This document shows, in pieces, positions 2,850-43,198 of a stretch of 64,000 bases of DNA. The notes under the pieces were generated by a model that had not been told where the DNA came from, made no database searches, and saw nothing but the letters and a program-made list of their open reading frames with translations. The position numbers and the translations under genes were made by a program. Origin of the DNA: an uncultured Gammaproteobacteria bacterium (GTDB lineage: Bacteria > Patescibacteriota > Patescibacteriia > Magasanikbacterales > GWA2-37-8); contig CAZHTA010000005.1 of NCBI GenBank assembly GCA_964535515.1, positions 13 to 64,012 of the forward strand. The letters run 5' to 3'. The number at the start of each line of letters is the position of its first letter. Within the stretch, counting starts at the first letter, position 1.

Positions 2850-2859
2850 ATATCAAATA

Positions 2860-2888
2860 TTGACAGAAGTGAGTTTTTTTAGTATAGT
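2860..2888 (+). promoter_or_regulatory. sigma70-like promoter TTGACA-17-TATAGT driving GC-rich ORF
   Basis: ttgaca(2860-2865) 17-nt spacer tatagt(2883-2888); AAGGAGG RBS at 2950-2956 before ATG 2961. Confidence 0.55.
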
Positions 2889-2960
2889 GAGCTGTTCTAC
2901 CCGTGGGGATGGGTGGACATCACGCGACTGGAGTATATCCAGCGCTAGCAAGGAGGAGGC

Positions 2961-3896
2961 ATGAAACTCAGAGAGATTCTGGTGGTCGAAGGGCTTACCA
3001 GGAACATGGGCGAACTTCTCTCGTCGGTGGTCGAGGCCGTGTCGGCTATCGGCTACCTCGAGGGCATGCGGCTGGTCATCGAAGAGTACAAGCCGGCTGC
3101 TGCCAAGCGCCAGCCGCTGGATGGCGTAAACGTGTCGGAAGAGTCGGTCAGGGCCTTTCGCGCCTTTTCGGGTGCTATGACCGCGCTTGCCGAGGGATGC
3201 CACATTCCCGTGGTGCAGGCCCTGTACCTGCACGATGCGGCGAGTGGACTCAGCCGGGGCAACGGCAACCTGCCCGACCAGCAGGTTGAGCTGAATCGGC
3301 ACGCTCTGCTCGTTCTCGGTGGTGTCTCTAGCGTTCTGCGTGGGGACGACTGGTGGTGCGTCTACGAGAAAGTGATGGTCGGCCTCATGGAGGCCGGGCA
3401 CGTCGCTTTCAATGAAGACGTCTTCCGGTCGATCATCGAGTCCATGAAGAAGAACCACGCCAAGGATGCGGCTGGTCGCCAGGCTCATCTGGCCGAGCGG
3501 CTCGCCGAGCAGGATCGCCTAGACGAGGCGATCGAAGTGCTCGCGTCGGTGGAGGGCGACACGTACTCCGCTCCGAACCAGCGTGGGTATGCGCTCGGGC
3601 TCCTGGAGAGGTACAGAGCCGTCGCCGTTACTCGGCGTGGTACGGGCACCTCGCGTGAGCGTCGCGCTCCGTCTCGTCGCAAGAAGGGCAGCGGTGCGAC
3701 CAAGGAAGGCGATCCCGAGCCACCACCAATAATCCGTCATCGCGCTTGGTACGGCACGATTGGCGGTACGTTCATTAGTACTAGGAGGGATAACGTCGTG
3801 GTCCCCACCCACGACTTACTCCAAAAGAGCATCAAATTATTGGTGCTTTTTTGTTTGTTTTTTTTATTTAAAAATGGTATATTATTCCTACTATGA
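2961..3896 (+). CDS. hypothetical protein encoded in GC-rich foreign-like cassette; 3' end appears truncated and reads through into AT-rich backbone/terminator
   Basis: High GC3 codon bias in this frame, canonical SD+ATG; C-terminal 25 aa (LLQKSIKLLVLFCLFFLFKNGILFLL) are translated from AT-rich terminator/promoter sequence. Confidence 0.5.
   Translation: MKLREILVVEGLTRNMGELLSSVVEAVSAIGYLEGMRLVIEEYKPAAAKRQPLDGVNVSEESVRAFRAFSGAMTALAEGCHIPVVQALYLHDAASGLSRGNGNLPDQQVELNRHALLVLGGVSSVLRGDDWWCVYEKVMVGLMEAGHVAFNEDVFRSIIESMKKNHAKDAAGRQAHLAERLAEQDRLDEAIEVLASVEGDTYSAPNQRGYALGLLERYRAVAVTRRGTGTSRERRAPSRRKKGSGATKEGDPEPPPIIRHRAWYGTIGGTFISTRRDNVVVPTHDLLQKSIKLLVLFCLFFLFKNGILFLL
3826..3852 (+). terminator. Rho-independent terminator downstream of GC-rich cassette
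   Basis: agagcatcaa-attat-tggtgct hairpin (one G-U) followed by T-run. Confidence 0.6.
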
Positions 3897-4747
3897 AAAA
3901 ACTTTTAATTTTAGGTTACAAAGGAACTCTTGGTCAGGCTTTGGTGGTGGAGTTTAATTTGCCAGATTACGAGGTAGTTGGGTGGGATCGAGAAGAGGCA
4001 GATATTACATCTTTAGATTTGGAAGATAAAATTGTGGCACTAGCACCGCAGGTGATTATTAATGCCACCGGTTACAATGCGTTAGATAAGGCAGAAAGTG
4101 ATGTTCAAGCCAAAGAAGTTTGTTTTGCAATTAATTCTGAAGCACCTAAGCGACTAGCAGAGATTGCTAAAAAGTTAGACGCGGTATTTGTTAATTATTC
4201 TTCAGACTATGTTTTTAGGGGTGATAAGGAAGAGGGGTATGCTGAAGATGATCTACCAAATCCGATCAATGTCTATGGCGAGTCAAAATATTTGGGAGAA
4301 AAGAATGTTCAATCGGTTGGTGGCAAGTTTTACATTATTCGACCTTCTCGCATTTTTGGTAAACCGGGTATTAGCGAGATGAGCAAGAGAAGTTTTGTTG
4401 ATATTATGGTAAGTAAGAAAAACGAAACCGAAGTAAGGGTGGTTAATGAGGAAAAGGGTAGTCCAACGTATGCTCCGGATTTAGCAAATTTTACTAGGGC
4501 GTTAATTGAAGAAGAAAAACCGTTTGGTATTTATCACGGGTCTAATAGTGGTGCCTGTACTTGGTATGAATGGGCAACAGAGATTTTTAAGATTATTGGT
4601 GCATCACCCAAATTAATACCGATTCCTAGTAGCGAATATCCTCGTCCTACCAAACTTCCACAATTTTCTGAGTTGTTAAATACTAAAATGTCTTTGCAAA
4701 GGCCGTGGCAGGAAGCTTTAAAAGAGTATTTAAAAAATTCCACTTAA
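3893..4747 (+). CDS. rfbD: dTDP-4-dehydrorhamnose reductase
   Basis: RmlD-like N-terminus MKKLLILGYKGTLGQAL, YSSDYVF motif, 284 aa. Confidence 0.75.
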   Translation: MKKLLILGYKGTLGQALVVEFNLPDYEVVGWDREEADITSLDLEDKIVALAPQVIINATGYNALDKAESDVQAKEVCFAINSEAPKRLAEIAKKLDAVFVNYSSDYVFRGDKEEGYAEDDLPNPINVYGESKYLGEKNVQSVGGKFYIIRPSRIFGKPGISEMSKRSFVDIMVSKKNETEVRVVNEEKGSPTYAPDLANFTRALIEEEKPFGIYHGSNSGACTWYEWATEIFKIIGASPKLIPIPSSEYPRPTKLPQFSELLNTKMSLQRPWQEALKEYLKNST

Positions 4748-19069: not shown

Positions 19070-19156
19070 GAGAATCACGCCCGACATAAGGCAGGTGTGA
19101 TTGTTGGGAAAGGGCAATGGCCTTGGGTTGGGTAGGGCGGAGTAGCCGTCGTGGGT

Positions 19157-19582
19157 CTAGTCGTCCAGCGTGCCCGGTCTGTCGAGCGGAGCGTAGAGAC
19201 CCAGTATGGAGCACTTGAAATCGGGGTCGTCGGGCGGGTTTTGCCCGAAAGCGCTGCGCATCTCGCGCTCTGGGCTCTGGCCGAATGCTCCGGGCCAGTA
19301 CTCGGCCGGAACGCTCAGAGCGCCTTCACGGAAGAAAAGGCGCACGTGACCTTTCATGTCTTCGGATAGGTTGTCCCACGCCGCCTGGTCCGTATCCGCG
19401 AGGGCGGATTCTTCCAGGAGGTGCTCGAGCAGAACCGGAGGCGTCTGCTTTTGCCTTTCTGCCCACTCACGCGCTCGTGCCTTGCTAAAGAACGGGGTGG
19501 TGTAGATATGGTCGCCGTTGAAGAAGCGTCCGTGAGTCGGCAGCACTCCGCATTTGCAGAGTCTGAACGTAATGTCTGCCAT
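19157..19582 (-). CDS. hypothetical protein in GC-rich foreign-like cassette 2
   Basis: 141 aa, strong GC3 bias in this frame, AAGGAGG RBS 6 nt upstream of ATG, no recognisable domain. Confidence 0.5.
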   Translation of the reverse strand: MADITFRLCKCGVLPTHGRFFNGDHIYTTPFFSKARAREWAERQKQTPPVLLEHLLEESALADTDQAAWDNLSEDMKGHVRLFFREGALSVPAEYWPGAFGQSPEREMRSAFGQNPPDDPDFKCSILGLYAPLDRPGTLDD

Positions 19583-19750
19583 CGGTTCCTCCTTACTTAC
19601 CCAGTTGGTTGTCGCCTGTTATAGAGCCTAACACAGGGTGGTATTTTGTTCAAGATGCTTAGTGTTTATGTCTTGTTTTGCGATTTGTAGTTTTTTAATA
19701 TAGGGAGTACAATATATGACAATTAATTATTGCTGTTATTTTAAATAACA

Positions 19751-23502: not shown

Positions 23503-23601
23503 GTATTCCTCCTATCATCCCTCCCGTTTTCCCGGGAGGATCAGGTGTGTGTTCGGGTGTGGGGTGGATTGCGACAGAATCGTCGCTCTTGGGGGGGGTA
23601 G

Positions 23602-23970
23602 CTAAGGCTTGGCGGCGTTGACCTCGGCGTTGACCTCCTGCATCCACTGCCCGATGACGGTGAGGGTGACGCCGGTCGAGGTGAGCTTGTTGATCACCAC
23701 CGACATTCCGAAGAGCACGATCGTTTCGGGAGCGAAGCCCTCAGCGTCGCCGTTGGCCCGGGAGTGGTCGAGAACCTCCCGGTAGGTGCCCTTGAAGAGG
23801 TCCTCTTCCGACTGGGACGGCACCCGCAGGTTGCCCACCTCCGTGGGCAAGATGTTGCCGCACTTCGTGCACATGACGACGTATCCGTTTCCGGATTCGC
23901 CGCGCATGACCTTGTGCAGGTGGTTGCACACGCACTCTGGACACCACGCGCTACGCATGAAGAGATACAT
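23602..23970 (-). CDS. zinc-ribbon protein in GC-rich foreign-like cassette 3
   Basis: 122 aa, N-terminal CPEC...CTKC zinc-ribbon, high GC3, promoter-like TTGACA with flanking direct repeats upstream. Confidence 0.5.
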   Translation of the reverse strand: MYLFMRSAWCPECVCNHLHKVMRGESGNGYVVMCTKCGNILPTEVGNLRVPSQSEEDLFKGTYREVLDHSRANGDAEGFAPETIVLFGMSVVINKLTSTGVTLTVIGQWMQEVNAEVNAAKP

Positions 23971-28975: not shown

Positions 28976-29132
28976 AAACCGTCTTCGTCAAAAGACAAAA
29001 ATCTTCTGACGGAGCGGGCGGTCTTGCGACAGCCTCAACTCCGTTGGGGGAGTTGTGACTTTGGAAAGAACAACCGGGTAGGAGGGGGGGGTGGACTGGG
29101 AGGCAACTCTATTTGACCGCTACGGCCTCGAT

Positions 29133-29483
29133 CTAGACGATCAGCGTGGTGCCGACGGAGCGGGGGTCGCGGATTTTCCGCACCCTACCTTCCTTGCTGG
29201 TGGCGACGAAGGTGTACGGGCTGGTCCAGGTCCAGACGACCTGGAAGAGGCTCCCTGTCGGCGCCTGTTGGGCGAAGCACATGATGCCGCTGTCCTTACC
29301 GTCGGTCCTGGGGACCAACAGGTCGCCGTCGCGAACGAGCCGGATGTAGGTCTTGAGCTGCGGTCCCGACTCCGGCGAGCTGGGCTTCCGGCTCGTGCGG
29401 AAGAAGGTCACGTCGGGCGGCAGCTTGAACAGGGCGCCCTTTTGGAACGGGAACGACGAGGTCGGGGTCGGTTGGTCGGACAT
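29133..29483 (-). CDS. hypothetical protein in GC-rich foreign-like cassette 4
   Basis: 116 aa, high GC3, GGAGGA RBS 5 nt upstream of ATG, minus-strand TTGACA-17-TAATAT promoter at about 29548-29576. Confidence 0.5.
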   Translation of the reverse strand: MSDQPTPTSSFPFQKGALFKLPPDVTFFRTSRKPSSPESGPQLKTYIRLVRDGDLLVPRTDGKDSGIMCFAQQAPTGSLFQVVWTWTSPYTFVATSKEGRVRKIRDPRSVGTTLIV

Positions 29484-29524
29484 GGTAATCCTCCAGAGAT
29501 GCTTGCTCTCACACCAACTGCGGT

Positions 29525-29806
29525 ATGAGTGTTGGTGAGGATATTAATGCTTTTTTTACAATTTGTCAATATTTCCCATTGCGGTTAATGTATTTTTTTG
29601 ATAAAATATTAATGCTTATGAAGACAAAAATAAATCAGAAGCAACAAGAAGAACTACAAAAACTAGAGAAGTGGTTTGATTTGGAGTTAATAAAATTAAA
29701 GAAAAAGCGAATCGAGATTTTAAAGCGTTATGATAAAAAAAGGTCATTGTTGTTTCAGAATAAAATATTAAAACATATTAGTGGTATAAAGACAGAAACA
29801 TATTAA
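29525..29806 (+). CDS. small Lys/Glu-rich coiled-coil protein (true start probably internal Met near 29614)
   Basis: ORF track 93 aa; first third overlaps minus-strand promoter of cassette 4, so a downstream start is more plausible. Confidence 0.4.
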   Translation: MSVGEDINAFFTICQYFPLRLMYFFDKILMLMKTKINQKQQEELQKLEKWFDLELIKLKKKRIEILKRYDKKRSLLFQNKILKHISGIKTETY

Positions 29807-29808
29807 AT

Positions 29809-32800
29809 ATGCCAGATGAAGTAGAGGACAACCAAGAGTTGGCGGTTGAACAGGATGGTGCACCTATAGAAATATTTGAGGGTCCATTCACTAATGAGAC
29901 TGAAGTTGATTTTGAAAATTTAAGAGCTGGGGCTGAGGTTGCTGAAGAAACTGCTAGGCAAGCAGAAGATTTTGTTATACAAAATCAAGACAAACCAGAG
30001 TTTGTCGAAGAAGTGCAAGCGATGGTTGAAGTAAAGACTGAGGCCAAAGAAATCAAATCTGGGTTTTTGCGTGGGTTAGATAAGATTTTTGGTGGCGTAA
30101 AGGAGAAGCTTAAGGGAGGTTTAGAAAAATCAGTTAAGGTTGATGATGAAAAAGTTATTGCTAGTTTGCACGCGAAATTAAATAAACTTCAGGTTGCTTT
30201 GCTTACAAAGAAGACTGATTTTTTGAAAAAAGTTGCTAAAAAATTAGGGACGAAATATTATTCAATACCAAAAAAAGAAGAAGAAAAAGCAATGACGGAA
30301 TTTTCTTATGGCAAAGAAAGTGGGGATGAATTTTTGGAATTACTTGATTTACATAAAAAAGCAGAAAAAAGTGACTATAAAAAATGGGAAAAAGCGGAAG
30401 AAGTTCTTTTGAGGGTTGCCAGGGACTTGATTTACAGCGCTTTAAGAAAGGGAAATCTAGAAGCAGCGTTAAGATTGTATGACCGATTGCCTGATTTGTT
30501 GGGTCTTAGTGAGATTTCAGAGAGGATAGTAATGTTTGTAGATGATCAATTCAAAGAAGAATATGATAAAAATGAAGGATATTTTGATTCAGAGAAAGCT
30601 CGTTTTGAGAACAAAAGAAAAGCGCGGATAAATTTCTTTAAAGATAAATTAAAATTTCGTCCAGATTTACGATTTTCAACATTTTTTATTAATGATCCGT
30701 ATTATCGAGGAGGTGGATTGGAATGCGTTGATGATGCTCAGCTGGGTGTTTTTAAAGATATTATTATCAAAGGCAATCGTGATTGTATATTAGCAAAATT
30801 TTCACCAACTGAAAAAATGACCGAAGAGGAGGTTGACAGGTTGTTCGAAGCGTATAGGAGGTTTGATAAAAACAAAATATTAAATAATATTGATCGTTTA
30901 AAAAGCAGAGTTGAAAAGTTGACTGATGCGGAGAGAGATGATGTAATTTTGCCTTTAATCGAAAATGGTGCGTGTTTGAACAATCCGGGTTTTGAACAGT
31001 ATTTACGTTTTTTCCCACTGACTAAAGCACAGACACGAGAGTTTGTTCACAAATTTTGGGATTATTATGAACCGTCAGATAATAAAACTAAAGATGAAGA
31101 CAAAAGAAAATGTATTGAACATTTGTCAATTAATTTTCCACAGATCTTTTTATTTGATTCAAATTTGGAAAAGATGAGTAATGTTTTTGAGTGGCCGTTA
31201 ACGGCAATAGATCAAAAGAAAGTGATTAGATATTGTTCTGGCGGTTTAGATGAAAGAGGAAATCTTAATGGGGATATTGATAATTTAAAGATGGTTATTG
31301 ATCGTAACAAAGAAGACTGTTCAGGATTGGGGGATATAGAAAGAGAAAATGCGTTATTAACTTATGTAAATTTACACCGAAGTTTTGGTTCGATTGATTA
31401 TGAACGTTTGTTTGGCGCTCTAGATAAAGCATCAGATGATGTTAGGGGAAAAATAATTCTAGAACTTAAAACTAAAAGGGCTTTAGAGGTTGTAGTTTTA
31501 GGTTTTGAATTTTTAAAACCCGAAGAACAAAAAAGCTTTTTAAGTTCTGATATGTTGGATGCACGCAAGCTTTTGGGCGTGTTTTATAATGGTGATAGTA
31601 GTGTTGATGGTGTTATGTATATAATTAATGGTTTGCATTTGTCAAATACAGAAAAGAAAAATATATATAGCCATTTGTTTGGTGATCTTACGAGTATTGA
31701 TCAAATAAAGTTGCTTAATACTTTTTATAAATATACAAATTCTAAAAAAGAATTAGAAGATTATTTGTCAGCCAATATTTCTGGGGTGTTAGGAAATTTA
31801 GATTTACTCGGTTATTTATCAAGTATTGGTAATGGGATTTATCCGGATATTGATTCGTTAAGTGCTGAAGATAGAGATTTTTTGACGTTAGCGCAAAATT
31901 TTCGAGCTTCGAAAAATCAACGTGATCTTTGGACGAGAATTGATCATGATGGTATAAACAGAGTTGAATGTAATGAAGGAGAGGTTGTGGCCACAAAAAA
32001 GGCAGATAGATTTGAAAGTAGAGTTTTAGCAAAAATTTTAGATGAAATGGGGTTGTCCACAGTCGAAAGAGATAAGCTTATAAATACGTTGATCTCTAGC
32101 CCTATCAGTGTTAGTGAGAGGTGTTGTGGTAAGCTCTCGGAATATTCGTCGGCTGAATTTTTTGATATCACTTTATTATCACAAGATAAGGGTGGAATTT
32201 TAACAAATGAACAATTTAATAAAATGGTGGATGGATTGTTGGTAAGCAGGCCAGATACTGTTTATGAAATATATATTGAAATTGGTGCTACTGCAGAAGA
32301 GAAAAAGCGATTGGCATTGGCGTTAGTAGAACATAATCCAAAATATTTATTGTCTCTTCATTTAAAAGGCGGAGATGTTTTGGAATTGATTTCTTTTTTA
32401 CCTCATCAAAAACGTTTAGACGCGATTAAAGAAATGGAAGTCGAAGAGCTTGTGAGTATTTTAGGTCAAGGACAGGGAGTAGTTTTTGGCCAGTTTGATC
32501 AAAGCGAGAGAGGCGCGGTTGTAGACAAACTATCGAAAGACAAACCGGAATTTATTTATGTTCTATACGAGAGTGTAGGTGTAATTTCTTCGGAAGAAAA
32601 AAAACAATTAGCGGAATCTTTTTTAAAGGTTAATCCTGTATATTTATTTCAAAAATATGTTGAGGGTAGTGATGGGATGGGTATAATTTATGGTTTGGAA
32701 AATTTGGATGAGATAATAGATAAGGTTGCGGAGTTTGACCCAGCTTTGGTGTTTATACATCGCAAGTTTTTGAATCTTGATGAAAAAAGACGTTTAGAGT

Positions 32801-34938
32801 TAATGAGACAAATGAGTCCTGATAAGCTAGTTTGGGTTTGTGTCGCAGAGGATGGTACAGAAAAAGATCCGCTTGAACAATATGAGCGAGACGAAATATT
32901 GCTTAAGTTATTAGATGGGTACCCAGAATTCGTTTATAATATGTATGTGCAGATTGGTAAAATAACACCAGAGCAGAGTCGGGGGTTAGCTGCTTCATTT
33001 TTATTACACAAACCCGAGTATCTTCTCCGGCTTTTTGTGTCAGGTCAAGATACGCTTGATGTATTTAATAATTCTTTTAATAGGAACGAATTAGTAGATA
33101 AGTTTATTGCGGTTTATCCAAGTTTAGTTTTTGAACATAGGGGTAAATTAAATCTTAGTGCGGAAAAGCGTATTGCGTTAATTGCATATATGCATCCTAG
33201 AGATATTGCCAATGTTATTCTTAATGTTAACGATGAAGGAAATAAATTTGCTAGTTTTGAGCAATATGAAAAAGATGCTATTTTAAGTAGATTTTTTAAT
33301 CAGGCTGCTGGGGAGTTCGTTAATTGTCGTAAAGAGTTTGGTTTGGGTGACTTAGATGGTATTCTTAAGATTAGGGATTTAAATATTTTTGGTGCTTATG
33401 AAGAGAAGATAAGTGCTGAAGTTCGTGAAAACATGGTGATCAGAACACAACAATTGTTATGTGCGGCGACTTTTTCAGATAGTATCGGGGATAAAAACTA
33501 TGAGTATTTTGATCAATTTGAAGTTGATGAAAATGAAAGTAAGAATTCAGTATTTTTTCGTGAATTTGTTGAGAAATATCCAATTGGTAACAAGGGGAAA
33601 ACCATTCTTGTTTTGTGTGCGGCTAAAGCATTTGAGGCTGGCGCTACTGCCGGTGAGGTGGTCGCCAACATTAGGCATGAGGTGGAATCTTATGAAAAGG
33701 TTATTGATAGATATGCGAGCTTAGATATTCCGACTGGTTTGCGTGCGTCTATGGGGACAGAATATGAAATTACGAAACCTAATAGTGAGGGCCACCGAGA
33801 AAGATTTGGAATGGACCTGAAGTCTAATATCATGAGTCTTAGTATGTTAGCGGAGGTGGGTCAGGGTCGTGATGCAGTACATGAAATTGCTACAAAACCG
33901 ACTGACAATCCGGCTTTGCTTTTGGCGGAAATGCATTTATTGCAAGAATTAGGATTTATTGATTTAAACTTTAATGAATATACTAAAGGGAGCCGCGGTT
34001 ATCATTTAACTATTGGTGGCGCACACGGTTTGCGAAACAGCAGGGATACTCGTTTTCTGTTAAATACATTAGTTATGTCTGGTTGGGCAGGTATAAACGC
34101 TGGTAAAGTAATTGGCGCTGTAAGCAGTGGTAGAAACATCCCGATTAGAGACCGTGGTTTTGGTGGAGTTCAAGTATTTAAGGGTGATACGCAATCAACC
34201 GAACTACGTAGTGTGTCTATTGATGCTTGGGAACCGTTTGAAAGAACGATTTTGACTAGTTATTTCTCTAGTATTGCTATTCAGACAATGAATAAATATT
34301 GTCCGGTTGAAGATTTGAAGGACTTTCTTGATGATCCAAGATTGTTGTCTGATTGGAGTGATAATTTTATTAGTAATCGTTCGTTGTCGGGAAGTGATTT
34401 GGAGGAGAGTAGCAAAATAGTAGAGATTGTTGGTGCATGGGTAAAATTGATGAGTGATGCAAAAGCAGCGGTAGATTACCATAATGAAAATTTTCCAACC
34501 GAAGCTTATAATGAAGAAGTTTATCGACAGATGGATGAGGCGACCATGGGAGAGAACTTTGAAAAAAAATTAGATATTGATCCAGCAGAGTTGTTTAGTG
34601 ATTTAACTCCGGAGTTTATTAATCGTTTGACGATGATTACTAATTTGTTTATTAAGCCATCTTTGAAAAGTGGCGGAGACACCGTAAATGCTGCGGCAAT
34701 ATTGTCAACTACTAAGATTGGTAAAAAGAATGGTGAAGAGTACGTGGAAGAAAGCCGGAGAACCCAATATAGTTCAATGTTTGATAGAGGTGAAAGTCGA
34801 CAGGGGTATTATTATGTTCAAAATGGCAGTCAGGAAATGATTATTCATAAAATTCAACAGTTATTGTTAGAGTTTAATCAGCGAATGCAGAAGGTTTTAT
34901 CGCGTTCGAATGCTGCTGTAATAGCGAAGGCGGCTTAA
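29809..34938 (+). CDS. giant protein (1709 aa) with internal ~100-aa repeats; function unknown
   Basis: Long uninterrupted ORF with backbone-like codon usage; three repeats of module ...PEF(V/I)Y..Y..(I/V)G.I..E....LA.SFL...P.YL... Confidence 0.8.
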   Translation: MPDEVEDNQELAVEQDGAPIEIFEGPFTNETEVDFENLRAGAEVAEETARQAEDFVIQNQDKPEFVEEVQAMVEVKTEAKEIKSGFLRGLDKIFGGVKEKLKGGLEKSVKVDDEKVIASLHAKLNKLQVALLTKKTDFLKKVAKKLGTKYYSIPKKEEEKAMTEFSYGKESGDEFLELLDLHKKAEKSDYKKWEKAEEVLLRVARDLIYSALRKGNLEAALRLYDRLPDLLGLSEISERIVMFVDDQFKEEYDKNEGYFDSEKARFENKRKARINFFKDKLKFRPDLRFSTFFINDPYYRGGGLECVDDAQLGVFKDIIIKGNRDCILAKFSPTEKMTEEEVDRLFEAYRRFDKNKILNNIDRLKSRVEKLTDAERDDVILPLIENGACLNNPGFEQYLRFFPLTKAQTREFVHKFWDYYEPSDNKTKDEDKRKCIEHLSINFPQIFLFDSNLEKMSNVFEWPLTAIDQKKVIRYCSGGLDERGNLNGDIDNLKMVIDRNKEDCSGLGDIERENALLTYVNLHRSFGSIDYERLFGALDKASDDVRGKIILELKTKRALEVVVLGFEFLKPEEQKSFLSSDMLDARKLLGVFYNGDSSVDGVMYIINGLHLSNTEKKNIYSHLFGDLTSIDQIKLLNTFYKYTNSKKELEDYLSANISGVLGNLDLLGYLSSIGNGIYPDIDSLSAEDRDFLTLAQNFRASKNQRDLWTRIDHDGINRVECNEGEVVATKKADRFESRVLAKILDEMGLSTVERDKLINTLISSPISVSERCCGKLSEYSSAEFFDITLLSQDKGGILTNEQFNKMVDGLLVSRPDTVYEIYIEIGATAEEKKRLALALVEHNPKYLLSLHLKGGDVLELISFLPHQKRLDAIKEMEVEELVSILGQGQGVVFGQFDQSERGAVVDKLSKDKPEFIYVLYESVGVISSEEKKQLAESFLKVNPVYLFQKYVEGSDGMGIIYGLENLDEIIDKVAEFDPALVFIHRKFLNLDEKRRLELMRQMSPDKLVWVCVAEDGTEKDPLEQYERDEILLKLLDGYPEFVYNMYVQIGKITPEQSRGLAASFLLHKPEYLLRLFVSGQDTLDVFNNSFNRNELVDKFIAVYPSLVFEHRGKLNLSAEKRIALIAYMHPRDIANVILNVNDEGNKFASFEQYEKDAILSRFFNQAAGEFVNCRKEFGLGDLDGILKIRDLNIFGAYEEKISAEVRENMVIRTQQLLCAATFSDSIGDKNYEYFDQFEVDENESKNSVFFREFVEKYPIGNKGKTILVLCAAKAFEAGATAGEVVANIRHEVESYEKVIDRYASLDIPTGLRASMGTEYEITKPNSEGHRERFGMDLKSNIMSLSMLAEVGQGRDAVHEIATKPTDNPALLLAEMHLLQELGFIDLNFNEYTKGSRGYHLTIGGAHGLRNSRDTRFLLNTLVMSGWAGINAGKVIGAVSSGRNIPIRDRGFGGVQVFKGDTQSTELRSVSIDAWEPFERTILTSYFSSIAIQTMNKYCPVEDLKDFLDDPRLLSDWSDNFISNRSLSGSDLEESSKIVEIVGAWVKLMSDAKAAVDYHNENFPTEAYNEEVYRQMDEATMGENFEKKLDIDPAELFSDLTPEFINRLTMITNLFIKPSLKSGGDTVNAAAILSTTKIGKKNGEEYVEESRRTQYSSMFDRGESRQGYYYVQNGSQEMIIHKIQQLLLEFNQRMQKVLSRSNAAVIAKAA

Positions 34939-35380: not shown

Positions 35381-37318
35381 ATGGACGAAAATCAAATCCA
35401 ATCAAATACTTTGGTTAGTGAACCGGTTGTGGCAGAAGCTCCTCCCGTAGTTGTGATGCAGGATGTGCCGGTGGTTAAGAAAAAGAATGTTTTAAATTCT
35501 GCTCTTTTTCCGCTTTTAGCGTTTCTTTTGATTGGTTTGGTATATATGGCAGTTTATGCTTTTATAAAGCCCGTAGCTAAAGATATTGTTAACGAGACAA
35601 TCGCTAAAATATTTAAAAATTACGGGATGTATTTTGGTTGGGTTTTTGCTTTGTTGTCTTTGGTGATAATGTATGTTTTGTATTTAATTAAAAAAATAGT
35701 TAGATTAGGTAAATTTCAAATAACTAATCCGATTATTTTAATTGCATCACTTTTGCCTTGGTATTTTTTTGCTAAACAGTTGCTTTTTCATGAAAAACGT
35801 TATACGGATATTGCCCGAGGGATAATCACTTATGTTGGCTTGCCATTACTGTGGGTGGTATATATTGTGGCGGGCATAGCTTTAGTTTGGTTTGTTGTTC
35901 TGGCGATTGTGAAATTACTCAAAAGAAAAGATTTGGCAAATAAAGCGGCTTTAGTGTTGTTTGTTGTTTTTGCCCCGTTTGTTTTAACAGGTTGTGTTGG
36001 TGATCTTCAAGCAATGTTGTGTGATTTTTTACCTGATAGCGATCATTGTTTTCAAGGAGCAGCTGTCCAAGAAGGGGACGCAGATGGTTGTGAAAAAGTT
36101 TCGGGAGAGAAATTTAAGGATGTTGGCTCTAATCCACCACGTGACAAGTGTTATTTGCAGATTGCAGAAAATACCGGTGATTTGGAAGCTTGTAAAAAAA
36201 TTAAAGGTGGGCCAATGTCATATGATAAAGATGAATGTATTTTAAGCACCTCTTTGGCCTATGAAAATCCAGCGGGTTGTAAATTGTTGTCGGGAGCGAA
36301 TAAAACAAAATGTTTATCGGAGTTTGGCATGCGTACTACCTACGACAAAGTTTTGGAGGTAGACGACCAGATTCAAATTTTAAAAGATAGTTTAAAAAAT
36401 GGTTCAGATGCGGAAATGGAAAAGCAGTTAAAAGGTTTGGAAGAAAAACGAACTGACATGCTTGGGGTGATGACAAAAATCAATCGTACGGAATATGAAA
36501 AAATGAGTGATCCAACGAATCGAGAAATTATTGGTGATTTTGCTGTTGGTGATATTGATAGTGCTACTAAAGAAAAACTTTTAGCCTTTAATGCTTCGTT
36601 AAAGAAGCAGGGGCTAGCTTTGACCGCAAGTCAGTATGATTCTTTTAAAGAATACTATAAATTTGTGAATGATCCTGATAATGATATTGAGAAGATGAAT
36701 GATTCGGAGATTGTAAAGAATCGTTGGAATGAAAAAGTTGGTAATGTAGTTGATGCAATGAAATTTTGGAAAACTAATGATACCAAAGCTGAGGAAAGTG
36801 CTGATCAGCAATTACGTTTTTATCAACGCATGTTAGAGCGTCAGGCGGCTATTGCCAAAGGGATGAGTGATTTGCAACAGGATGTCGATAGGAATATGGA
36901 TATGGTAATTGAAGCAGGCAAAGACAAAGCCAAGGATATTTTGAAAGACAAGGTGATTGAGGGTTTGTTTGGCGAAATTACTGGTAAAACTGTTGGTATT
37001 ACTACAGCGGTATTAGGTGAAGCAATAGACACGGTTAAAGCCGAAGCCAAATCAGCTGAGTTTAGAGGCTTGGTAAATGCCTATAACTCTGGCATGTCTG
37101 AAGAAGTGGGTAAATTTGGCGGTGATGTTGAAAAGGCACATGCGGAAGTTATTAAGAAATTGATGGCTGATCCATATACATATGCAAGTGGCAATTCGTT
37201 TGCTAAGTATGGTAACTTAATAGAAAATAAAGATTGCGATGGTACTAATCCGCATTGTTTAAATAAAGAGGTATTTTGGAAGGCGATGAAAAAGTCGTAT
37301 AAATATCAACATCAATAG
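35381..37318 (+). CDS. multi-pass membrane protein with Cys-rich and coiled-coil extracytoplasmic region
   Basis: 645 aa, about 6 N-terminal hydrophobic helices, Cys-rich segment, Lys/Glu-rich C-terminal half. Confidence 0.55.
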   Translation: MDENQIQSNTLVSEPVVAEAPPVVVMQDVPVVKKKNVLNSALFPLLAFLLIGLVYMAVYAFIKPVAKDIVNETIAKIFKNYGMYFGWVFALLSLVIMYVLYLIKKIVRLGKFQITNPIILIASLLPWYFFAKQLLFHEKRYTDIARGIITYVGLPLLWVVYIVAGIALVWFVVLAIVKLLKRKDLANKAALVLFVVFAPFVLTGCVGDLQAMLCDFLPDSDHCFQGAAVQEGDADGCEKVSGEKFKDVGSNPPRDKCYLQIAENTGDLEACKKIKGGPMSYDKDECILSTSLAYENPAGCKLLSGANKTKCLSEFGMRTTYDKVLEVDDQIQILKDSLKNGSDAEMEKQLKGLEEKRTDMLGVMTKINRTEYEKMSDPTNREIIGDFAVGDIDSATKEKLLAFNASLKKQGLALTASQYDSFKEYYKFVNDPDNDIEKMNDSEIVKNRWNEKVGNVVDAMKFWKTNDTKAEESADQQLRFYQRMLERQAAIAKGMSDLQQDVDRNMDMVIEAGKDKAKDILKDKVIEGLFGEITGKTVGITTAVLGEAIDTVKAEAKSAEFRGLVNAYNSGMSEEVGKFGGDVEKAHAEVIKKLMADPYTYASGNSFAKYGNLIENKDCDGTNPHCLNKEVFWKAMKKSYKYQHQ

Positions 37319-37332
37319 AAAATTGAAATATT

Positions 37333-38034
37333 ATGAATAAAAAATATATAATATTTATTATGGTCATAGCTATTTTAATTGGTGTAGCATTACTTGTGTT
37401 AGTTTTTTCGATGATGGGATCAGATAAAGAAGTTACTAATACACCGGTAACAAAAGTAGAAAATTTTAGCGAACCTATTCCAGAACCTGTTGTGGAGCCT
37501 GTGGTTCCAGTGGTTGTTGCACCTGTTGTTTCGTCAACAAATTTAGTAATTAATGAAAATACAATGCCAGTTGTTAAAATAAAAACAAACAAAGGAGACA
37601 TTACGTTAGAACTTTTTTCTGAAGACGTGCCAAAGACGGTGGAGAATTTTATTACTTTAGCTAAAAAAGGTTTTTATGATGGTGTAATTTTTCATCGGGT
37701 AATCAGTGGTTTTATGATTCAAGGCGGTGATCCAACAGGTACGGGCACGGGTGGTCCAGGGTATCGGTTTGATGATGAATTGAATTCACAAACACCTTCA
37801 TACAAGCGTGGTTATGTGCGTGGTACTTTAGCAATGGCTAACGCCGGTCCAAATACTAATGGTAGCCAGTTTTTTATCATGCACAAAGACTACCCACTAC
37901 CTAATGCCTATACTATTTTTGGGCGGGTGACAAAGGGAATAGAAGTAGTTGATGCGATTGCGGCTGAAGCTGTTGATTCGTCCGATCGTCCGCTAGAAGA
38001 CGTGGTAATGACAAAGGTAGAGGTAAAGCTTTAA
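37333..38034 (+). CDS. ppiB: cyclophilin-type peptidyl-prolyl cis-trans isomerase with N-terminal membrane anchor
   Basis: FHRVISGFMIQGGDP...GPNTNGSQFFI cyclophilin signature; 233 aa. Confidence 0.85.
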   Translation: MNKKYIIFIMVIAILIGVALLVLVFSMMGSDKEVTNTPVTKVENFSEPIPEPVVEPVVPVVVAPVVSSTNLVINENTMPVVKIKTNKGDITLELFSEDVPKTVENFITLAKKGFYDGVIFHRVISGFMIQGGDPTGTGTGGPGYRFDDELNSQTPSYKRGYVRGTLAMANAGPNTNGSQFFIMHKDYPLPNAYTIFGRVTKGIEVVDAIAAEAVDSSDRPLEDVVMTKVEVKL

Positions 38035-38036
38035 AT

Positions 38037-38064
38037 TTGACAGGGTTTTTGTTGGTGGTATAAT
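38037..38064 (+). promoter_or_regulatory. strong sigma70-like promoter TTGACA-16-TATAAT
   Basis: ttgaca(38037-42) gggtttttgttggtgg tataat(38059-64). Confidence 0.6.
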
Positions 38065-38121
38065 GTGAGTATGCTTAATAAAAAGTATCAATTTTTAAAG
38101 GCACACAAAAGAAAGAAATCA

Positions 38122-38149
38122 GAATTTCCCTGTTGGGAAATTTTTTTTA
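38122..38149 (+). terminator. terminator hairpin 1 in leader region
   Basis: aatttccc-tgtt-gggaaatt + T8. Confidence 0.65.
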
Positions 38150-38171
38150 TAACCAACAATATTAATTCACT

Positions 38172-38199
38172 AAATCCTCCGTTTCCCGGAGGATTTTTT
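38172..38199 (+). terminator. terminator hairpin 2 in leader region
   Basis: aaatcctccg-tttccc-ggaggat + T6. Confidence 0.65.
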
Positions 38200-38239
38200 A
38201 AATTTTAAAATTATGACATAAAATATCAATCAATAATTT

Positions 38240-38264
38240 GACGGCTAATGGCCGTCTGTTTTTT
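38240..38264 (+). terminator. terminator hairpin 3 in leader region
   Basis: gacggc-taat-ggccgtc + tgtttttt. Confidence 0.6.
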
Positions 38265-38288
38265 AGAAAATAATTTAATTAAAAAACT

Positions 38289-39293
38289 ATGGATACATCA
38301 GTTATTAAATTAACCGATCGAGTTTTGCAAGGCGCACGAGAATATTTGATTCAGAATGGTTATACGGAAGTCGTAACACCGCGCATTGTTAAGGCATCAG
38401 GTGCTTGTGAGAATATCAACACTTTGTTTGAGGTTTCATCAGATAAGGATGATCGTTGGTTTGATGGTCACAAAAGTTATTTGGCACAAACTGGTCAGTT
38501 GTATCTTGAGGCTTTAGTGCCAAAGTTAGGTTGTGTATATTGTGTTGGTCCTAGTTTTCGTGCGGAGCCGAAGGTAGACAAAAGGCATTTAACGGAGTTT
38601 TTGATGATTGAGATTGAACATCCAGGTGGTTTTGATCGGTTATTAGAATATATCGAAGGCATGCTTTATCATGTAGCGCAAATAGTTGCAAATGACCCAA
38701 AGGCAGTTGACGTCTATGGTATTACAGATGAAACTATTGTCCGATTAGCTTCGTGCACTAAAGTGTTTACTAAACTTACCTATGACCAAGCAATTAATAA
38801 GTTAAAGAGTTTGGGCGAAAAAATTGAATGGGGCGATGATATATCTTCAGCACAAGAGAGTGTCTTAGTATGGGAGAATAAAAATCAGCCGTTGTTTATT
38901 ACCAGATTTCCTGATCCGATGTGGAAGTTCGATAAGGATATTGAAGTGGAAAAATTTTTTAACATGTTGCCCGACCCGGAAAATCCGGGTCGTGTTTTAT
39001 CTGCTGATTTAATCTTGCCTTTTGGTGGGGAAGCAGTAGGTTCAGCAGCACGAGCGCATGAGGCCGATGTTCTGCGGGCAAGATTGGAGAACTCAAGAAT
39101 GTTTAAGCGTTTAGTGGAACGAGGGGGAAGCATTGAAGACTTTGAGTGGTATATTAACCAAGTTGAAACGAACGGTGCTGTACCACACGCAGGTTGTGGT
39201 TTTGGTATGGCCAGAGTAATACAATGGTTAAAAGGGGAGACTGATATTCGTAAGGCTGTGGCGTTTCCTTCTAACAAAGAGATTTTAGTATAG
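38289..39293 (+). CDS. class II aminoacyl-tRNA synthetase catalytic-core homolog lacking anticodon-binding domain (AsnA-like aspartate-ammonia ligase, archaeal AS-AR type)
   Basis: Motif 2-like GPSFRAEP, motif 3-like GCGFGMARVIQWL; 334 aa with no N-terminal OB fold. Confidence 0.55.
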   Translation: MDTSVIKLTDRVLQGAREYLIQNGYTEVVTPRIVKASGACENINTLFEVSSDKDDRWFDGHKSYLAQTGQLYLEALVPKLGCVYCVGPSFRAEPKVDKRHLTEFLMIEIEHPGGFDRLLEYIEGMLYHVAQIVANDPKAVDVYGITDETIVRLASCTKVFTKLTYDQAINKLKSLGEKIEWGDDISSAQESVLVWENKNQPLFITRFPDPMWKFDKDIEVEKFFNMLPDPENPGRVLSADLILPFGGEAVGSAARAHEADVLRARLENSRMFKRLVERGGSIEDFEWYINQVETNGAVPHAGCGFGMARVIQWLKGETDIRKAVAFPSNKEILV

Positions 39294-39342: not shown

Positions 39343-39375
39343 AAAAAATCCGCTTGTTTTAAAGCGGATTTTTTG
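39343..39375 (+). terminator. Rho-independent terminator
   Basis: aaaaaatccgctt-gtttta-aagcggatttttt. Confidence 0.7.
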
Positions 39376-41397: not shown

Positions 41398-41468
41398 GCC
41401 CTCTTTGTTCAGTGGTAGAACAGTGGTATCGTAAACCACAAACATCAGTTCGATTCTGATAGAGGGCT
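41398..41468 (+). tRNA. tRNA-Thr (anticodon CGU)
   Basis: Manual fold: acceptor GCCCUCU/AGAGGGC, D-arm GUUC-AGUGGUA-GAAC, anticodon loop AUCGUAA, T-arm AUCAG-UUCGAUU-CUGAU. Confidence 0.8.
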
Positions 41469-41582
41469 CATTTAAAATTTCGCTTAATAGCGGAGTTTTT
41501 TATTTTCCACAAACCCTTGCTTTTTTTGTTGTTTATGATAGGGTTATTAAAGAAATTTGGGAATATATTTCCCTTAATTTGC

Positions 41583-41602
41583 ATTTGCACGCTCGTGCAA
41601 AT
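41583..41602. promoter_or_regulatory. 9-bp perfect inverted repeat ATTTGCACG-ct-CGTGCAAAT adjacent to TTGAC hexamers upstream of pepT (candidate operator)
   Basis: Palindrome seen directly; overlaps putative promoter ttgaccgatatttgaca. Confidence 0.45.
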
Positions 41603-41689
41603 GTTGACCGATATTTGACAATTCATTACGGAAACGGAAGAGGGAGTTAGTGCTAGTGCTGGAGCGAAAACTGTTTGGGGGAGGAATAG

Positions 41690-42943
41690 ATGTTGATTCC
41701 ACGCGAACGCATGCTCGAAAGGTTCATGCGCTACGTGCGCATGGACACCCAGTCGGTTGAGGGAGCGGAGTGCTACCCCTCGACCGAGAAGCAGAAGACC
41801 TTGCTGCGGCTGTTGGTCGACGAACTGAAGGCGCTGGGCCTCGCCGATGCGGCCATGGACGAGTGGGGCTACGTCTTCGCGACGTTGCCGTCGAACTTGC
41901 CGGCCGACCAGGCCGCCAAGTTGCCGGCCATCGGTTTCTTGGCGCACGTCGACACGTCGCCGGAAACGAGCGGCACGGACGTGAAGCCGGTGATCTGGAG
42001 GCACTACGATGCGGGCACCAACCTCGTGTTGCCCGGCGACCATTCCCAGGTGATCACCTGGGACGGTAACCCCGTGCTGCAGCGATACGTCGGGCAGGAC
42101 ATCATCACCAGCGACGGCACCACCCTGCTGAGCGCGGATGATAAGGCGGGCATCGCCGAAATCATGACCGCCATCGAGGTGCTGTTGGCGAATCCTGACA
42201 TCCCGCGCCCCACCATCCGTGTGGCGTTCACGCCCGACGAAGAGGTCGGTATGGGTACTGCCCATTTCGATCTCGCGAAGTTCGGCGTGCAGGCCGCCTA
42301 TACCCTCGACGGCGGCGAAATCGGTGAGGTTGAATGCGAGACATTCAACGCTTACCTCGCGACCTTCACGGTCGTCGGCAACAACTGCCACCCCGGCTAC
42401 GCCAAGGGGAAGATGGTCAACGCCATTCGTCCCATGGCAGCTATCGTCGAGGCCTTGTCCGACCAGCCTGCACCCGAGACCACCGAGGGTCGCCAGGCTT
42501 ACCTGCACCCGTACGATCTCAAGGGTGAAGTTGCCAAGGCTACGCTCAAGGTGCTCATCCGCAGCTTCGATGAAGCAGGTATCGAGTCGCGCAAGATGTT
42601 CCTCGCGGGCGTGCGCGATCGCGTAGCGGCGGCGTTCCCTCAGGCGAACATCGTTCTCGAGATGGTCGAGCAGTACAAGAACATGAAGGTCTACGTGGAT
42701 CAGGATCCGCGTGTCATGGCCTTCGCCACGGAAGCCATCATCAAGGCTGGTCTCCAGCCGATCACACGCGAGATCCGCGGCGGTACGGATGGCTCGAAGT
42801 TGTCCGAGAAAGGACTGCCTTGCCCCAACCTGTTCGCGGGTGGGCACAACTTCCACTCGAAGTTGGAGTTCATCCCGGTGCAGTCTATGGAGAAGGCCGT
42901 GGAGGTCGTGGTCTACCTGGTCGAGCGCTGGGCCAACGCCTGA
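41690..42943 (+). CDS. pepT: peptidase T (tripeptide aminopeptidase, M20B family) in GC-rich foreign-like cassette 5
   Basis: Strong collinear similarity to E. coli PepT recalled from memory (HVDTSP, GADDKAGIAEIM, AFTPDEEVG, IRGGTDG, GLPCPNLF, GGHNFH); high GC3; GGGGGAGG RBS. Confidence 0.8.
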   Translation: MLIPRERMLERFMRYVRMDTQSVEGAECYPSTEKQKTLLRLLVDELKALGLADAAMDEWGYVFATLPSNLPADQAAKLPAIGFLAHVDTSPETSGTDVKPVIWRHYDAGTNLVLPGDHSQVITWDGNPVLQRYVGQDIITSDGTTLLSADDKAGIAEIMTAIEVLLANPDIPRPTIRVAFTPDEEVGMGTAHFDLAKFGVQAAYTLDGGEIGEVECETFNAYLATFTVVGNNCHPGYAKGKMVNAIRPMAAIVEALSDQPAPETTEGRQAYLHPYDLKGEVAKATLKVLIRSFDEAGIESRKMFLAGVRDRVAAAFPQANIVLEMVEQYKNMKVYVDQDPRVMAFATEAIIKAGLQPITREIRGGTDGSKLSEKGLPCPNLFAGGHNFHSKLEFIPVQSMEKAVEVVVYLVERWANA

Positions 42944-43198
42944 TCATCCCGTCTCAGCCGTTTCTGGCTAAACACTTACCACATTGGAGGGAAATGGTGT
43001 GGCACAGTGCGATTCATTCGCCAAGCTATTCCCCTCTAAATGAAGATTTTGATTTAAGTCTTTATTTAGAGGATAGTTTGGAAATATTAATAAGACCATT
43101 TGTATAAATTACGAGTGGTTTTTTATTTATACACATCCTTTGGTTTGGTAGGTTTTCTACTTCTCCTTTTTTGTGATATAATTTAAATACTATCGCTT

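Follow-up and report, generated by a model that had tools for sequence, protein, structure and literature searches.

A conserved leader open reading frame running through predicted terminators ahead of an AsnRS-core gene in Patescibacteria, probably a ribosome-dependent transcription attenuator

The pyrBI (pyrL) and pyrE attenuators of Escherichia coli sense the coupling of transcription and translation (further details are found in the work of Turnbough), and leaderless leader peptides are known in Corynebacterium and Streptomyces. In Patescibacteria (candidate phyla radiation, CPR), uncultured bacteria with tiny genomes that are thought to rely on host organisms for their amino acids, almost nothing is to our knowledge known of gene regulation. 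The subject of this work is a leader in a 64,000-nt stretch of contig CAZHTA010000005.1 (assembly GCA_964535515.1; "the window" denotes this whole 64-kb stretch), where it lies on the + strand ahead of a gene for the catalytic core of a class II asparaginyl-tRNA synthetase (AsnRS). This leader is probably a ribosome-dependent transcription attenuator of the pyrBI type that functions without an antiterminator.

Three lines of published work are relevant to such a system. In pyrBI, the leader open reading frame (ORF) extends through the attenuator, ahead of which lies a hairpin with a U-rich pause site (PMC5021804, PMC4824070). The influence of a ribosome on a nearby terminator has been dissected with tR2 in E. 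coli, where bringing a stop codon nearer, from 28 to 5 bp upstream, lowered termination from ~90% to <10% in a translation-dependent manner; terminators within the first 100 bp of an ORF are efficient unless a pause lets the ribosome catch up, and termination inside an ORF yields non-stop mRNAs (PMC4824070). Finally, the polycysteine leaderless ORFs of mycobacteria lack a Shine-Dalgarno (SD) sequence, stand at the 5' end of the transcript and control the downstream operon genes in cis (bioRxiv 10.1101/834739).

The leader of the window (Table 1) starts with a promoter that matches the consensus at 12 of 12 positions, with TG at 38056-57 and TATAAT at 38059-64; no other perfect TTGACA-N16-18-TATAAT occurs on either strand of the 64 kb (0.05 expected by chance). 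The A of the leader ATG is the seventh base after the -10 hexamer. The first two of three hairpins, T1 and T2, end 78 and 129 nt from the leader AUG, and the leader stop codon is found 9 nt past the T2 stem; T3 begins 31 nt after this stop codon. Each hairpin folds far better than its own shuffles, and a 3-kb scan contained eight terminator-like sites against 1.9 expected. An earlier annotation of this DNA, here called the sequence-only reading, had proposed a near-consensus TTGACA-16-TATAAT promoter, three hairpin and U-run terminators before the next gene, a 45-codon and possibly leaderless ORF threading the first two of them, and a downstream gene for a class II aminoacyl-tRNA synthetase core of the AsnA/AsnRS type. 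The promoter, the ORF and the three hairpins are present where that reading had placed them, and the gene product proved to have an AsnRS-type core (Pfam, asnS and 1x54 matches, see below).

Table 1. Features of the leader locus and of its immediate surroundings in the window.
Feature	Position	Strand	Details
Cyclophilin-type peptidyl-prolyl isomerase gene (upstream)	37333..38034	+	ends 2 nt before the promoter
Sigma-70-type promoter	38037..38064	+	-35 TTGACA 38037-42, 16-nt spacer, extended -10 TGgTATAAT 38056-64
Leader ORF, 45 codons	38071..38208	+	MLNKKYQFLKAHKRKKSEFPCWEIFFITNNINSLNPPFPGGFFKF followed by stop; ATG 38071, TAA 38206-38208; contains T1 and T2
T1 hairpin (predicted terminator or pause site)	38121..38148	+	AGAATTTCCC-TGTT-GGGAAATTTT + U8; stem-loop 38121-38144, U8 38141-38148, -11.3 kcal/mol; inside the ORF
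Asn-rich stretch	38155..38175	+	AAC AAT ATT AAT TCA CTA AAT; between T1 and T2, running into the T2 5' arm
T2 hairpin (predicted terminator)	38172..38199	+	AAATCCTCCG-TTTCC-CGGAGGATTT + U6; stem-loop 38172-38196, U6 to 38199, -14.1 kcal/mol; inside the ORF
Two-codon ORF	38213..38221	+	ATG ACA TAA; 5 nt past the leader stop, 18 nt before T3, just after the T2 U-tract
T3 hairpin (predicted terminator)	38240..38264	+	GACGGC(T)-AAT-(G)GCCGTC then TGTTTTTT; stem-loop 38240-38256, -11.1 kcal/mol; beyond the ORF
Regulated gene, class II AsnRS catalytic core	38289..39293	+	334 aa; without anticodon-binding domain
Terminator after the regulated gene	39343..39374	+	

This anatomy is closest to that of pyrBI and pyrE, in which a leader ORF also runs into or through an intrinsic terminator, a trailing ribosome blocks the hairpin without the aid of an antiterminator, and a hairpin with a U-tract forms a pause site before the attenuator, as T1 stands before T2 in the window. 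The differences are that the window leader appears to be leaderless whereas those of pyrBI and pyrE are SD-led, that the downstream gene concerns asparagine instead of pyrimidines, that the ORF contains two of the terminators, the third lying beyond it, and that the stop codon is often located in a hairpin loop; there is no sequence similarity between them. In the mechanism proposed here, the very strong promoter would start the mRNA on the leader AUG itself or no more than a few bases away from it, and the leader ORF would run into and through the intrinsic terminators T1 and T2. While the polymerase stands on a U-tract, a ribosome that has loaded fast and trails it closely would cover the 5' arm of the preceding hairpin; with the hairpins blocked there would be no termination and the AsnRS-core gene would be transcribed. 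When the ribosome is absent or lags behind, the transcript would end at T1 or T2. Because these two hairpins end so close to the AUG, the outcome would depend on the loading and speed of the first ribosome, and T1 could serve as a synchronising pause upstream of T2. The leader would thereby report how well its translation keeps pace with transcription, the peptide itself being immaterial, and possible inputs include general translation capacity, Asn-tRNA and the supply of UTP at the U8 tract. All the observations together are likely to fit one mechanism only, in which a trailing ribosome directly occludes the terminators, as at pyrBI.

The evidence for this proposal comes largely from relatives of the locus, of which 53 from genomes and 80 from metagenomes were fetched. 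Nearly all belong to Patescibacteria/CPR (Magasanik-, Komeili-, Uhr-, Kerfeld-, Specht-, Lipton- and Nomurabacteria, and Paceibacterota), the closest being L054 (87% identity) and L055 (84%). Upstream of these genes the same plan is repeated, namely a promoter, a start codon near the -10 box, a short ORF, one to three terminators composed of a hairpin and a U-run, and the gene, with 20-30 nt from the last terminator to the gene ATG in most loci. A blind scan of 467 kb on both strands for a module consisting of a promoter, an ATG 5-11 nt past the -10 box, an ORF of 12-70 codons and a terminator returned 35 modules, of which 33 are directly upstream of an AsnRS-core gene. This gene is thus singled out by such a leader in the sequence sampled, which points to asparagine supply as a controlled step. 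The strict module rule holds in 69 of 92 distinct loci and most of the others are visible variants, for instance starting with GTG or extended at the 5' end. The three Zixibacteria homologues differ in having an ordinary SD sequence and no leader module. The module recurs behind differing upstream genes and, because in many loci the upstream gene has a separate terminator of its own just before the promoter (L025, L029, L033, L034, L039, L055, L061, L063 and L066), it stands alone. Many of the TPA_asm bins titled 'uncultured Gammaproteobacteria' (e.g., L002, L004, L005 and L008) bear the CPR-type locus and leader, and these labels are probably wrong.

Conservation of the ORF in relatives, which the sequence-only reading had named as a check, is strong. 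When the best promoter with an ATG was taken at each of 66 loci, with no condition set on the ORF, the leader frame reached the first downstream hairpin without a stop in 62 loci, whereas the other two frames did so in 9 and 17; the family-wide median open length is 29 codons in the leader frame and 1 and 7.5 codons in the others. In these counts, as in those of stop codons below, related sequences are treated as independent. In the clade of the window, the homologous ORF (L054, L055, L061, L063, L066, L071, L064, L065 and L067) remains open across T1 in every case and on into T2 or beyond it, and a 6-nt indel between T1 and T2 that distinguishes the window from L054 keeps the frame. The N-terminal half of the leader peptide is highly divergent even among enzymes that are 84-87% identical, its length and basic character being kept, while the C-terminal half is dictated by the hairpin sequences. 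Fast N-terminal divergence with maintenance of frame and length indicates that translation, rather than the peptide, is selected, a pattern typical of leader ORFs that matter through being translated and one that argues against a functional small protein. The possibility that the peptide acts as a conserved nascent-chain sensor was set aside for the same divergence, and since the recurrent 'FF' of these peptides is merely the U-tract read in frame. In all, the leader ORF is genuine and conserved, with its start, frame and stop under selection.

The start of the ORF is equally constrained. In 34 of 39 related loci the start codon falls 6-10 nt past the -10 box (the promoter-like site ends there), and because of this short distance the leader mRNA is probably leaderless, with the transcript starting at or within a few nt of the ATG and lacking an SD sequence. 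In this respect the leader resembles the short regulatory ORFs found in Actinobacteria at the 5' end of transcripts without an SD sequence; those ORFs carry regulatory-codon runs and belong to another lineage, and no terminator-embedded stop codon is known to have been described for them. As for the rest of the window, none of its ~41 native long ORFs has an SD-like sequence within 18 nt of the start, and several have TATAAT-like boxes merely 9-16 nt upstream, which suggests that SD-independent initiation on short leaders is the norm in this organism. Two relatives show a variation at the start: in L064 (~1166-1183) and L065 (~1174-1197) the leaderless ATG opens just a 5-6-codon ORF and a second ATG opens the long ORF through T1 and T2, the two ORFs of L065 overlapping as ATGA.

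Among 46 curated loci there is none in which the leader stop precedes a hairpin by more than 4 nt; the stop is placed at the 5' edge of the hairpin in 13, in the loop in 19 and past the hairpin in 14. Among the 85 hairpins reached by an open leader frame, the loops hold 25 stop triplets in the leader frame against four and four in the other frames (binomial p = 7.5e-7, with related sequences taken as independent), and the same loop position is occupied by TAA, TGA or TAG in close relatives. Two joint constraints seem to operate, one bringing the ribosome onto the hairpin and the other keeping the stop codon, where possible, within the terminated transcripts. Selection for an in-frame loop stop would be explained by the fact that each terminated leader would otherwise be a non-stop mRNA. 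In the window, T1 and T2 precede the stop codon and its terminated leaders would therefore be of the non-stop kind. The engineered E. coli constructs of Li et al. 2015 (PMC4824070) are similar in that a stop codon a few nt from or inside the terminator allows a ribosome to prevent folding of the hairpin, and differ in that the regulatory unit described here is natural and conserved.

The hairpins themselves are maintained. T2 is the most widely conserved hairpin of the family and is supported by covariation, and T1 is kept with compensatory changes in 10 related loci and is absent from L025 and L002. For T1 and T2 together, 14 alignment cells are changed on both sides of the stem against 5.2 in shuffles (none of 500 shuffles reaches 14), and pairing is found in 85.6% of cells, whereas sliding the partners leaves at most 58% paired. 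T3 is conserved in L054 (GACGAC/GTCGTC, compensatory), L055 and L002, with one compensatory and one wobble change among the four loci. Folds of partial transcripts of the leader yielded no mutually exclusive terminator/antiterminator pairing, the check on alternative folds that the sequence-only reading had called for: in the fold of 38071-38181 the 5' arm of T2 is free while its 3' arm is yet to be transcribed, and in that of 38135-38200, from which the 5' arm of T1 is removed, T2 forms unchanged, so the 3' arm of T1 is no competitor. The classical trp, his, phe, leu and thr attenuators, represented in Rfam by leader families, are like the window leader in having a short translated leader ORF followed by an intrinsic terminator and an amino-acid-related gene. 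However, the window leader lacks their 1:2, 2:3 and 3:4 alternative pairings, the stop codon of its family lies in or after the terminator where the trp-type stop lies well before it, and the family has no conserved run of regulatory codons. Two defining features of the trp type, the antiterminator and the conserved regulatory-codon run, are thus absent.

Several points weigh against ribosome-dependent attenuation as proposed here. The start site, termination at T1-T3 and translation of the leader are deduced from sequence alone, and the statistics count related sequences as independent. Since the leader is so short, a ribosome would be in place at T1 and T2 only if the polymerase pauses, and a U-run of at least five is found inside the ORF in just 22 of the 46 curated loci; a U-rich pause tract was for this reason rejected as a universal feature. 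T1 with its U8 is at a pyrBI-like pause position in the window and nine relatives and may act as a pause there. T3 is outside the reach of a ribosome on the leader ORF, so something else must carry the polymerase past it. Moreover, a logic in which good translation switches the gene on is unusual for an amino acid biosynthesis gene.

A candidate for passage through T3 is the two-codon ORF that follows T2. An ATG-NCN-TAA/TGA is present at the same place in nine loci (L054, L055, L057, L058, L025, L002, L061, L063 and L066), the long leader ORF of L061 and L063 ends at the stop codon of the two-codon ORF, and an SD-led poly-Asn upstream ORF (uORF) occupies the corresponding interval of L064 and L067. 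A terminator ~18 nt past a stop codon is repressed either weakly or strongly, depending on the sequence (PMC4824070). It is conceivable from this arrangement that the two-codon ORF acts as a ribosome relay to T3. These elements can be combined in a joint reading, offered tentatively and with the odds rather against it, in which the attenuator would be of a distinct kind and would read only how far the pioneer ribosome of a leaderless mRNA trails the polymerase, twice in series, at T1 and at T2; the two-codon ORF would relay the ribosome toward T3, the loop stop would avoid non-stop mRNAs, and poly-Asn uORFs would add asparagine specificity in some lineages.

The first alternative to be weighed is stalling at Asn codons, the model put forward by the sequence-only reading, in which scarcity of Asn-tRNA would stall the ribosome in the ITNNINSLN segment of the leader, relieve termination and induce an asparagine-synthesis gene. 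The segment is present just upstream of T2 as had been noted, with Asn codons at 38155-60, 38164-66 and 38173-75 (four Asn in seven residues), and among the short ORFs of 98 distinct leaders that of the window ranks third in Asn density. Between T1 and T2 of the T1-bearing clade there are 13 AAY codons in frame against 1 and 8 out of frame, a suggestive count only, since the sequences are related and avoidance of stop codons biases one of the comparison frames. The last Asn codon lies in the 5' arm of T2, and a ribosome stalled there would mask this hairpin. However, the geometry of a stalled ribosome (as in PMC4824070) allows masking of T2 solely from codon 38173-75 and partly from 38164-66; the first Asn codons (38155-60) are 12-17 nt before T2, and a stall at this place would leave T2 free and should favour termination. 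The run is also absent from the closest relatives, which read ITINFIN and ITADNIAIS instead; the ORF is conserved and its Asn run is not. Across the family, Asn makes up 5.6% of leader residues and AAY codons are not enriched in frame (81 against 85 and 87 out of frame; adjoining hairpins, 28 against 21 and 23). Together with the lack of an antiterminator in the partial-transcript folds, this renders Asn-codon stalling improbable as the mechanism of the window leader: of the earlier attenuator model the cis-acting leader and attenuator stand, and Asn-codon stalling with trp-style pairing is not supported.

True poly-Asn uORFs do precede the same gene in two relatives. L064 (75% identity) has a strong SD and ATG (AAY)7 TAG between T2 and the gene (1404-1430, MNNNNNNN and stop), and L067 (72% identity) an SD-led uORF with (AAY)8 and TAG (1354-1389, MNVNNNNNNNN and stop); a decayed copy is found in L065 (~1331-1348). 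These two uORFs come from different metagenomes, differ in codon order and contain the only runs of at least seven AAY codons in 729 kb, and a search of upstream ORFs for runs of other amino acids singled out nothing besides these two. In L067 the Asn codons can pair with the following AUAUUGUUGUU, and folds of both loci show stable hairpins 4-10 nt past the uORF stop that have no U-tract. The uORFs resemble the regulatory-codon runs of classical attenuators and point to the existence of Asn-tRNA sensing by a leader peptide in this gene family, at another element. The presence in L064 and L067 of the T1-T2 leader in addition to a separate uORF suggests that the T1-T2 leader itself is not Asn-reading. 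On the strength of these uORFs the link of the enzyme gene to asparagine appears real, and their peptides would represent the first asparagine leader-peptide attenuators to be described, as far as could be found.

A second alternative is that termination is governed by a factor that acts in trans by binding to the leader RNA, which could be a protein (possibly the AsnRS-core enzyme itself), a small molecule or a tRNA; the ORF would then be secondary. Such a factor would explain passage through T3, which is beyond the reach of the leader ribosome, and might also account for the CCUCCG/CGGAGG core of T2 being nearly invariant in the clade of the window. However, the leader is AT-rich and without structure except at the hairpins and is conserved in the manner of a codon frame, the enzyme has no tRNA anticodon-binding domain, and no known RNA family is recognised. 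Rfam at gathering thresholds matched no family in the whole window, a search of 37900-38400 at E <= 10 gave merely terminator-shaped sub-threshold matches, and the leaders of 20 related loci matched none at threshold, T-boxes and riboswitches included; the best score (Phe_leader, 27 bits against a gathering score of 55) corresponds to the terminator hairpin alone. No tRNA or tmRNA was found in the leader region. Control by a trans-acting factor is accordingly regarded as quite unlikely.

Just as unlikely is that the unit is an independent small gene, in which an abundant short mRNA or small RNA (sRNA) for a small basic peptide would be made, the terminators would be its ends, and the enzyme would be expressed by leak-through. 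The strong promoter, the strong terminators and the conserved ORF are all compatible with this proposal. Against it are the poor conservation of the peptide among close relatives and a C-terminal half set by the hairpins, the tie between stop codon and hairpin position, the occurrence of the unit almost solely before the AsnRS-core gene, and, in most loci, a distance from the last terminator to the gene ATG too short to accommodate another promoter. The related suggestion of the sequence-only reading that the promoter makes only one or more terminated sRNAs is unlikely in view of the coding signatures, with frame, start and stop under selection. That the hairpins just end the isomerase operon and the ORF is accidental is hardly credible, since the module recurs with different upstream genes, many of them with their own terminator, and all frame statistics oppose it, even though the isomerase gene of the window has no terminator of its own ahead of the promoter and T1-T3 would therefore end its transcripts too.

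The sequence of the regulated enzyme matches Pfam tRNA-synt_2 (PF00152, E = 2e-48), aligns solely with residues ~131-445 of the NCBIfam asnS models and has Pyrococcus horikoshii AsnRS (1x54, residues ~133-427) as best PDB match; because the matches are confined to the catalytic part, an anticodon-binding domain is absent. The NCBIfam equivalog scores are all under their cut-offs (asparagine synthetase A, 104.8 against 368 bits; asnS, 198 against 414). By analogy with the asparagine synthetase AS-AR of archaea, a truncated AsnRS paralogue, the product is presumed to be an asparagine synthetase too. Both have an AsnRS-type class II catalytic core without an anticodon-binding domain; the window enzyme differs in lying far under the asparagine synthetase A cut-off and closer to genuine AsnRS cores (198 bits with asnS). 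The poly-Asn uORFs upstream of orthologues tie the enzyme to asparagine and are the only indirect support for a synthetase role, in which Asn would be made from Asp, ammonia and ATP and tRNA would be left uncharged. No record of the exact enzyme sequence was found in the public assemblies looked up, and no tRNA-Asn adjoining the gene was found in the relatives. The terminator that follows the gene makes the unit monocistronic.

The literature searched contained nothing relevant on leader peptides or attenuators in Patescibacteria or on asnA or AsnRS leader peptides, and the module is absent from Rfam; as far as found, neither it nor any asparagine leader peptide has been described in print. 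If the distance-reading attenuator is true, Patescibacteria would gain with it their first defined regulatory RNA leader, and it would provide direct sequence evidence of leaderless initiation and of transcription-translation coupling in uncultured, SD-poor organisms. As a compact and widely conserved cis-regulatory unit of ~250 nt, it is amenable to cell-free systems and bears on leaderless translation and ribosome-polymerase coupling in this group. The location of a stop codon in a terminator loop in addition constitutes a simple rule for finding similar attenuators elsewhere.

Some further observations were made on the leaders and their surroundings. In many loci (e.g., L003, L004, L009, L012 and L029) an AT-rich motif, TAATAATTAAC, is found 10-15 nt before the start codon of the AsnRS-core gene; its counterpart in the window, AATAATTTAATTAA, occupies 38266-38284, between the last terminator and the start codon. 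The motif holds stop codons in two frames; it may serve as a region of SD-independent initiation or as a barrier to translation. REP-like palindromes are inserted in the leaders of L067 (~1250-1335), L020 and L039, and take the form GTCATTGCGAGGAG...GCAATC and GTCATTCTGAGC...GAAGAATC.

Elsewhere in the window, short islands of ~60% G+C interrupt a genome of ~37% G+C at ~2850-3900, 19100-19600, 23600-23900, 29000-29600 and 41470-43000, the last adjoining a tRNA-Thr (41398-41469). Only two long ORFs of the window have an SD sequence, one without a Pfam match at 2961-3896 and the other, for an M20 peptidase, at 41690-42943. The high-G+C islands are possibly foreign insertions or assembly chimeras. 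Upstream of the isomerase gene, a 1709-aa ORF (29809-34938) and a 645-aa ORF (35381-37318) have no Pfam match, and membrane-like N-terminal segments are predicted in the 645-aa protein.

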